From the NCBI RefSeq assembly GCF_003334385.1, contig NZ_QOWN01000020.1: a DNA stretch of 64,000 nucleotides; one strand, 5' to 3'. The notes beneath the pieces were generated by a model. The model was not told the DNA's origin, did not search any database, and saw only the letters and a program-made list of their open reading frames with translations. The stretch comes from Escherichia coli. Lineage in GTDB: Bacteria; Pseudomonadota; Gammaproteobacteria; Enterobacterales; Enterobacteriaceae. The stretch's first letter is position 1. Each line of letters begins with the position of its first letter. Below are positions 3,858 through 5,504 of this stretch, piece after piece. The translations under genes were made by a program, and so were the position numbers.

Positions 3858-5504
3858 ATGAATGGCGCACAGTGGGTGGTACATGCGTTGCGGGCACAGG
3901 GTGTGAACACCGTTTTCGGTTATCCGGGTGGCGCAATTATGCCGGTTTACGATGCATTGTATGACGGCGGCGTGGAGCACTTGCTATGCCGACATGAGCA
4001 GGGTGCGGCAATGGCGGCTATCGGTTATGCTCGTGCTACCGGCAAAACTGGCGTATGTATCGCCACGTCTGGTCCGGGCGCAACCAACCTGATAACCGGG
4101 CTTGCGGACGCACTGTTAGATTCCATCCCTGTTGTTGCCATCACCGGTCAAGTGTCCGCACCGTTTATCGGCACTGACGCATTTCAGGAAGTGGATGTCC
4201 TGGGATTGTCGTTAGCCTGTACCAAGCACAGCTTTCTGGTGCAGTCGCTGGAAGAGTTGCCGCGCATCATGGCTGAAGCATTCGACGTTGCCTGCTCAGG
4301 TCGTCCTGGTCCGGTTCTGGTCGATATCCCAAAAGATATCCAGTTAGCCAGCGGTGACCTGGAACCGTGGTTCACCACCGTTGAAAACGAAGTGACTTTC
4401 CCACATGCCGAAGTTGAGCAAGCGCGCCAGATGCTGGCAAAAGCGCAAAAACCGATGCTGTACGTTGGCGGTGGCGTGGGTATGGCGCAGGCAGTTCCGG
4501 CTTTGCGTGAATTTCTCGCTGCCACAAAAATGCCTGCCACCTGTACGCTGAAAGGGCTGGGCGCAGTAGAAGCAGATTATCCGTACTATCTGGGCATGCT
4601 GGGGATGCACGGCACCAAAGCGGCAAACTTCGCGGTGCAGGAGTGTGACCTGCTGATCGCCGTGGGCGCACGTTTTGATGACCGGGTGACCGGCAAACTG
4701 AACACCTTCGCGCCACACGCCAGTGTTATCCATATGGATATCGACCCGGCAGAAATGAACAAGCTGCGTCAGGCACATGTGGCATTACAAGGTGATTTAA
4801 ATGCTCTGTTACCAGCATTACAGCAGCCGTTAAATATCAATGACTGGCAGCAACACTGCGCGCAGCTGCGTGATGAACATTCCTGGCGTTACGACCATCC
4901 CGGTGACGCTATCTACGCGCCGTTGTTGTTAAAACAACTGTCGGATCGTAAACCTGCGGATTGCGTCGTGACCACAGATGTGGGGCAGCACCAGATGTGG
5001 GCTGCGCAGCACATCGCCCACACTCGCCCGGAAAATTTCATCACCTCCAGCGGTTTAGGTACCATGGGTTTTGGTTTACCGGCGGCGGTTGGCGCACAAG
5101 TCGCGCGACCGAACGATACCGTTGTCTGTATCTCCGGTGACGGCTCTTTCATGATGAATGTGCAAGAGCTGGGCACCGTAAAACGCAAGCAGTTACCGTT
5201 GAAAATCGTCTTACTCGATAACCAACGGTTAGGGATGGTTCGACAATGGCAGCAACTGTTTTTTCAGGAACGATACAGCGAAACCACCCTTACTGATAAC
5301 CCCGATTTCCTCATGTTAGCCAGCGCCTTCGGCATCCCTGGCCAACACATCACCCGTAAAGACCAGGTTGAAGCGGCACTCGACACCATGCTGAACAGTG
5401 ATGGGCCATACCTGCTTCATGTCTCAATCGACGAACTTGAGAACGTCTGGCCGCTGGTGCCGCCTGGCGCCAGTAATTCAGAAATGTTGGAGAAATTATC
5501 ATGA
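3858..5504 (+). CDS. ilvG: Acetolactate synthase II large subunit, uninterrupted 548-aa reading frame
   Basis: Single continuous ORF; TPP-enzyme motifs; overlaps ilvM by ATGA. Confidence 0.95.

Follow-up and report, generated by a model that had tools for sequence, protein, structure and literature searches.

The acetohydroxyacid synthase (AHAS) gene ilvG is frameshifted in Escherichia coli K-12, and the question raised by the locus described here is whether the ilvG of another E. coli sequence is the K-12 allele or an intact one, and what the answer says about the strain it comes from. The window analysed is a stretch of 64,000 nucleotides of E. coli contig NZ_QOWN01000020.1 (RefSeq assembly GCF_003334385.1), and all positions refer to it. 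E. coli has three AHAS isozymes, of which AHAS I (IlvBN) and AHAS III (IlvIH) are feedback-inhibited by valine and AHAS II (IlvGM) is not; K-12 is without AHAS II, so valine starves it of isoleucine (PMC8605374). The K-12 frameshift and the intact gene found elsewhere have been known since 1981 (Lawther et al., as cited in PMC8605374), and ilvG is intact in strains W, B and Crooks (PMC3032704). A first-pass annotation of the window had proposed that its ilvG is an uninterrupted frame that does not derive from a K-12-type allele, that it should encode a valine-resistant AHAS II and that, together with yifN and hemX, it marks the source as a non-K-12 background. The observation is confirmed and its interpretation is supported by the analyses below: the window almost certainly carries the ordinary wild-type ilvG of a natural E. 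coli strain that is a near relative of K-12 without being K-12 itself.

The gene is a single plus-strand open reading frame with an ATG start, 548 codons and no internal stops in the ORF list. Its TGA (5502-5504) overlaps the ATG of ilvM (5501-5503) at the junction TCATGATG, and the wider sequence at the 3' end of ilvG and the start of ilvM reads ...GAGAAATTATCATGATGCAA... The coordinates, the length and the ATGA overlap with ilvM given by the first-pass annotation are all exact, as judged from the ORF list and from a reading of the sequence itself. By simple arithmetic, a frame of this length would stay open by chance with a probability of approximately (61/64)^548, or about 4e-12, and an origin by chance is excluded in any case by the match of the frame to a curated family model over its full length. 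That model is the NCBIfam equivalog NF006524, “acetolactate synthase 2 catalytic subunit”, which IlvG matches with 1075.1 bits (cutoff 738) and from end to end, with residues 1-547 aligned to positions 1-547 of the 548 in the profile. IlvG scores under the cutoff of every other equivalog or subfamily model of AHAS isozymes, and the only further model it passes is TIGR00118, for the general biosynthetic AHAS large subunit (716.8 bits, cutoff 538.35). The three-domain architecture of ThDP enzymes (N/Pyr, middle, C/PP) is present in full, as Pfam domains PF02776 (TPP_enzyme_N, residues 1-115), PF00205 (TPP_enzyme_M, 186-321) and PF02775 (TPP_enzyme_C, 374-522), all with E <= 1e-41. An HEQG motif is found at residues 46-49 (with Glu47) and a GDG...N motif at 427-456, and both are conserved when IlvG is aligned with 6lpi_A and Arabidopsis AHAS. 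In line with what is established for ThDP enzymes, we take the glutamate of HEQG to be the catalytic glutamate, and GDG-(X)n-N to be the ThDP/Mg2+ binding motif.

The exact 548-residue protein occurs on at least 1000 public contigs, where it is named acetolactate synthase 2 catalytic subunit [Escherichia coli], and ilvG was matched in all 5426 complete E. coli genomes, with many natural isolates and E. coli C being 100% identical to the window gene at the nucleotide level. In natural strains such as E. coli C, B, W and Crooks, IlvG likewise has 548 residues and its gene sits at this place in the operon, with the ATGA overlap into ilvM; no difference from the window gene was found. The nearest solved structure by sequence is 6lpi_A (E = 1e-161, IlvG residues 2-544), the large subunit IlvB of E. 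coli AHAS I, which belongs to the same fold family, catalyses the same reaction and shares the cofactor motifs; a PDB sequence search with IlvG returned no entry that is E. coli IlvG itself. IlvB is a paralogue: its partner is IlvN, in an enzyme that valine inhibits, while the partner of IlvG in the valine-insensitive AHAS II is IlvM (PMC8605374). As a separate observation, the 90%-identity cluster that contains IlvG is represented by a Bacteroides CusA/CzcA efflux protein of 1041 residues and has several such members, which looks like an artefact of database clustering and not biology.

The K-12 lesion was located by aligning the 1647-nt ilvG of the window globally with its pseudogene counterpart in MG1655 (b4488, 1645 nt), the comparison by which the first-pass annotation had said that its claim could be checked. 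The two differ at four positions in 1647 nt: the AT at 4834-4835 of the window (gene positions 977-978) is absent from K-12, a C at 5338 is an A in K-12, and a T at 5357 is a G. The lesion site reads TTAAATATCAATGA in the window and TTAAATCAATGA in K-12, so that AAT ATC AAT GAC becomes AAT CAA TGA, with an in-frame TGA three codons on. Translated in the same frame, K-12 ilvG ends at codon 328 (...QQPLNQ*), whereas the frame of the window continues; the loss of one AT at TTAAAT[AT]CAATGA that defines the K-12 allele is not found in the window, and neither is a stop. The K-12 frameshift thus lies at an ATAT repeat of which the window has kept both units, and the claim that this is not the K-12 allele holds. 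As the K-12 stop falls just past the middle domain, the product lacks the whole C-terminal ThDP-binding domain (374-522), which explains the loss of function of ilvG in K-12. Measured against the allele of most E. coli in these alignments, the K-12 lesion is a 2-nt deletion of AT in the ATAT repeat. A genome paper speaks more loosely of “two separate base pair insertions” (PMC3032704), and the nature of the lesion is a small clarification that comes from the present work.

The distribution of the two alleles was surveyed in 5426 complete E. coli genomes with 40-nt queries centred on the lesion, a design in which no 28-nt seed can fail to span it. The intact-type junction was found in at least 3496 genomes and the K-12-type junction in 340, while 1590 genomes matched neither junction seed, presumably due to nearby substitutions. 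We viewed 120 of the 340 K-12-junction genomes by name (the first 60 and a spread of 60). Going by strain names, source fields and genome sizes, these include MG1655, W3110-type strains, DH1, DH5alpha, C600, J53, BW25113, XL1-Blue and similar strains, and the remainder are O16:H48 isolates or transconjugants derived from strains of this kind. All 120 therefore look like K-12 derivatives, transconjugants or O16:H48. By these junction counts, intact ilvG is the norm of the species, and the AT deletion appears to be confined to the K-12 lineage, in a survey whose counts are lower bounds. The same counts bear on whether the extra AT could be a sequencing or assembly error that merges two frames. 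Indel errors do occur in assemblies in general, with nothing that points to the AT of ilvG in particular; against such an error, the AT does not lie in a homopolymer, at least 3496 independent complete genomes share the ATAT sequence, and the frame fits the family model unbroken across the site. We consider the probability of an error here to be negligible.

The gene lies inside an ilvLXGMEDA operon whose order is collinear with that of K-12, with a dedicated small-subunit gene, ilvM, directly downstream (Table 1). The 560 nt upstream of ilvG, which include ilvL, the attenuator and ilvX, are identical to K-12. The attenuator hairpin folds with -21.6 kcal/mol (z = -4.26), and none of 200 shuffled sequences folds as well. 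Its role as the attenuator of ilvGMEDA is one that we take from established knowledge. A consensus terminator scan of the plus strand did not report this hairpin, because its stem has an internal mismatch, though direct folding shows it clearly. Rfam family RF02744 (Rev39 5'UTR, of soft-rot Enterobacteriaceae) matches positions 3546..3838 on the plus strand with 157 bits, and appears, from where it matches, to describe the leader of ilvGMEDA by a different name. IlvM passes the NCBIfam equivalog for the AHAS II small subunit (NF008362) with 133.9 bits against a cutoff of 68; its gene has two silent substitutions, and the protein is the same as K-12 IlvM. The overlap of the ilvG stop with the ilvM start suggests that translation of the two genes may be coupled. 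The locus, its flanks, the upstream leader, attenuator and ilvX, and the IlvM protein are thus shared with MG1655; unlike the window, b4488 has lost the AT, stops at codon 328, has His at position 494 and differs silently at codon 500.

Table 1. Features of the ilv operon in the window, and loci at which the window differs from K-12 MG1655.
Feature	Position	Strand	Description	Basis or comparison with K-12
ilvL	3620..3718	+	Leader peptide, 32 codons, MTALLRVISLVVISVVVIIIPPCGAALGRGKA, rich in Ile/Val/Leu codons	ORF; K-12 ilvL annotation
Attenuator	3739..3774	+	Terminator hairpin, then U run	Folding; K-12-identical sequence
ilvX	3805..3855	+	Small ORF, 16 codons, directly upstream of ilvG	Position of K-12 ilvX b4669; K-12-identical
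ilvG	3858..5504	+	Intact; catalytic (large) subunit of acetohydroxyacid synthase II	ORF, NCBIfam, Pfam, motifs
ATAT site	4832..4835	+	Gene position 975-978, codon 326	Pairwise alignment; one AT lost in K-12
ilvM	5501..5764	+	AHAS II small subunit, 87 codons	ORF; NCBIfam NF008362
ilvE	5784..6713	+	Next operon gene, ATG at 5784; substitution cluster	ORF; collinear with K-12 ilvE
ilvC-ppiC intergenic	12746..12759		14 nt unrelated to K-12 sequence	Replaces 55-nt REP-like element
yifN	13271..13762	-	Intact, 163 aa; extra A at 13511	1-nt deletion in K-12, annotated pseudogene
rep	~13940-15960		Substitution cluster	
aslB/aslA	~36200-39300		Substitution cluster	
aslB-aslA intergenic	37456..37468		Small indel	Extra G and extra CATTTTGT relative to K-12
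hemY	39953-41149		Substitution cluster	
hemX	41152..42387	-	411 aa; repeat at ~41192-41260	393 aa in K-12; 54 extra nt in window

When the AT is put back in K-12 ilvG, the protein differs from that of the window only at residue 494, which is Pro in the window and His in K-12; the difference at codon 500 (R500) is silent. As both of these K-12 substitutions sit downstream of the frameshift, we considered that they might have arisen by decay of the K-12 pseudogene and be private to it. This was rejected: 971 complete genomes carry the His494 allele, some of them from human, bovine and chicken isolates, and this number exceeds the 340 K-12-junction genomes by approximately 630. Arabidopsis AHAS carries Pro at the position aligned with IlvG 494. 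Judged by these frequencies, residue 494 is an ordinary natural polymorphism of which the Pro and His forms are both common, and since both are common, a meaningful functional difference between them is unlikely. We give only a very slight chance to a difference in kinetics or stability between the Pro494 and His494 forms; were there one, laboratory “ilvG+” strains of K-12, which have His494, would not reproduce the enzyme of the window's lineage.

The substitution at residue 494 is also the one point in favour of a gene that is open but non-functional or unexpressed, through a missense or regulatory defect, in a strain that would still be sensitive to valine. Both variants at this residue are, however, common, the identical protein is found on at least 1000 contigs and the identical gene in many natural isolates, the domains and cofactor motifs are all in place, and the promoter, leader and attenuator region and the IlvM protein are identical to K-12. 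A silent or defective ilvG is therefore very improbable, and nothing in the sequence argues against reading the gene as an ordinary wild-type ilvG.

The first-pass annotation had used ilvG as a marker of a non-K-12 background, and this is supported with a qualification: the allele excludes K-12, and as intact ilvG is the species norm, it indicates nothing more specific. An open ilvG frame on its own would also be compatible with a valine-resistant revertant, that is, a K-12 derivative whose ilvG had been repaired, either spontaneously (ilvO-type reversion) or by engineering. In favour of such an origin, MG1655 under selection readily acquires mutations that restore the frame, such as 1-nt deletions in the premature TGA (PMC8605374), and the ilvG of the window differs from K-12 at only four positions, behind an identical upstream region. 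The revertants described in PMC8605374, however, carry compensating 1-nt deletions and not the ancestral sequence, whereas the window holds the exact wild-type ATAT.

The whole 64 kb is collinear with MG1655 3,946,703-4,010,679, at an identity of 99.2-99.95%, and differs from it by 247 substitutions. These are strongly clustered, in rep (41), aslB (33), aslA (31), hemY (17), ilvE (17) and gpp (16), while the final 22.8 kb contain only 10. This clustering gives the window a mosaic appearance, of the kind typically left by patchwise recombination among E. coli lineages that are close relatives. The yifN gene is intact, and hemX is longer than in K-12 through a hexanucleotide, GGTGCA on the plus strand, that gives Ala-Pro repeats near the C terminus of the protein and is present in 11 copies as opposed to two in K-12; from its sequence, it looks like a slippage-prone coding repeat. 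A REP-like palindromic element of 55 nt (…GATGCCCTCACCCCGACCCTCTCCCACAGGGAGAGGG…), which in K-12 lies directly past the ilvC stop, is absent from the window. The near-identity to MG1655, the yifN pseudogene and the short hemX repeat of a K-12 background are thus not found here, and the best matches to the first 25 kb of the window are natural human, pig, poultry and bovine isolates. Among complete genomes, the top matches to positions 1-25000 (MLI104K1/K2, LR-33 and others) reach no more than 46145 bits, which we estimate to be a little short of perfect, with a few differences in 25 kb.

No K-12 derivative would have these 247 substitutions together with an intact yifN, 54 extra nucleotides in hemX and no REP-like element after ilvC, and the closest matches, being natural isolates from humans, pigs and poultry, also argue against a restored K-12. 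With the wild-type ATAT and the substitutions taken together, we reject an origin by reversion, which we regard as extremely improbable. The non-K-12 source that the first-pass annotation had proposed is upheld on the same evidence, and the collinearity, the substitutions and the yifN and hemX indels point to a natural strain that is closely related to K-12, and not to a revertant of it.

With a wild-type ilvG in a natural strain as the preferred reading, the phenotype of that strain can be predicted. The full-length ThDP-dependent catalytic subunit and the product of the overlapping ilvM would together form AHAS II, the valine-insensitive isozyme, which would condense pyruvate with pyruvate or 2-ketobutyrate in the first common step to valine, leucine and isoleucine. 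Expression would proceed from the usual operon, ilvL-ilvX-ilvG-ilvM-ilvE-ilvD-ilvA, whose leader and attenuator do not differ from the K-12 ones. Since both ilvG and ilvM are intact behind an unaltered regulatory region, the source strain should, as far as its DNA can tell, make an active AHAS II, be resistant to valine and have ilvEDA free of polar effects. Published work on other strains makes a valine-resistant AHAS II a reasonable inference. MG1655 in which the ilvG frame was restored by single-base deletions grows at 1 mg/ml valine (PMC8605374), and strain B, with an intact ilvG, has higher expression of ilvGMEDA and grows on valine dipeptides (PMC3446290). The frameshift of K-12 is described as polar on ilvEDA, reducing the expression of ilvE (PMC8605374, citing Parekh & Hatfield 1997).

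The gene is well studied, its intact form is the usual one, and this is already textbook knowledge; the present observation serves solely to place the window outside the K-12 lineage. As for the source organism, the ilvG of the window leads one to expect that it resists valine and expresses ilvEDA normally, free of polarity.
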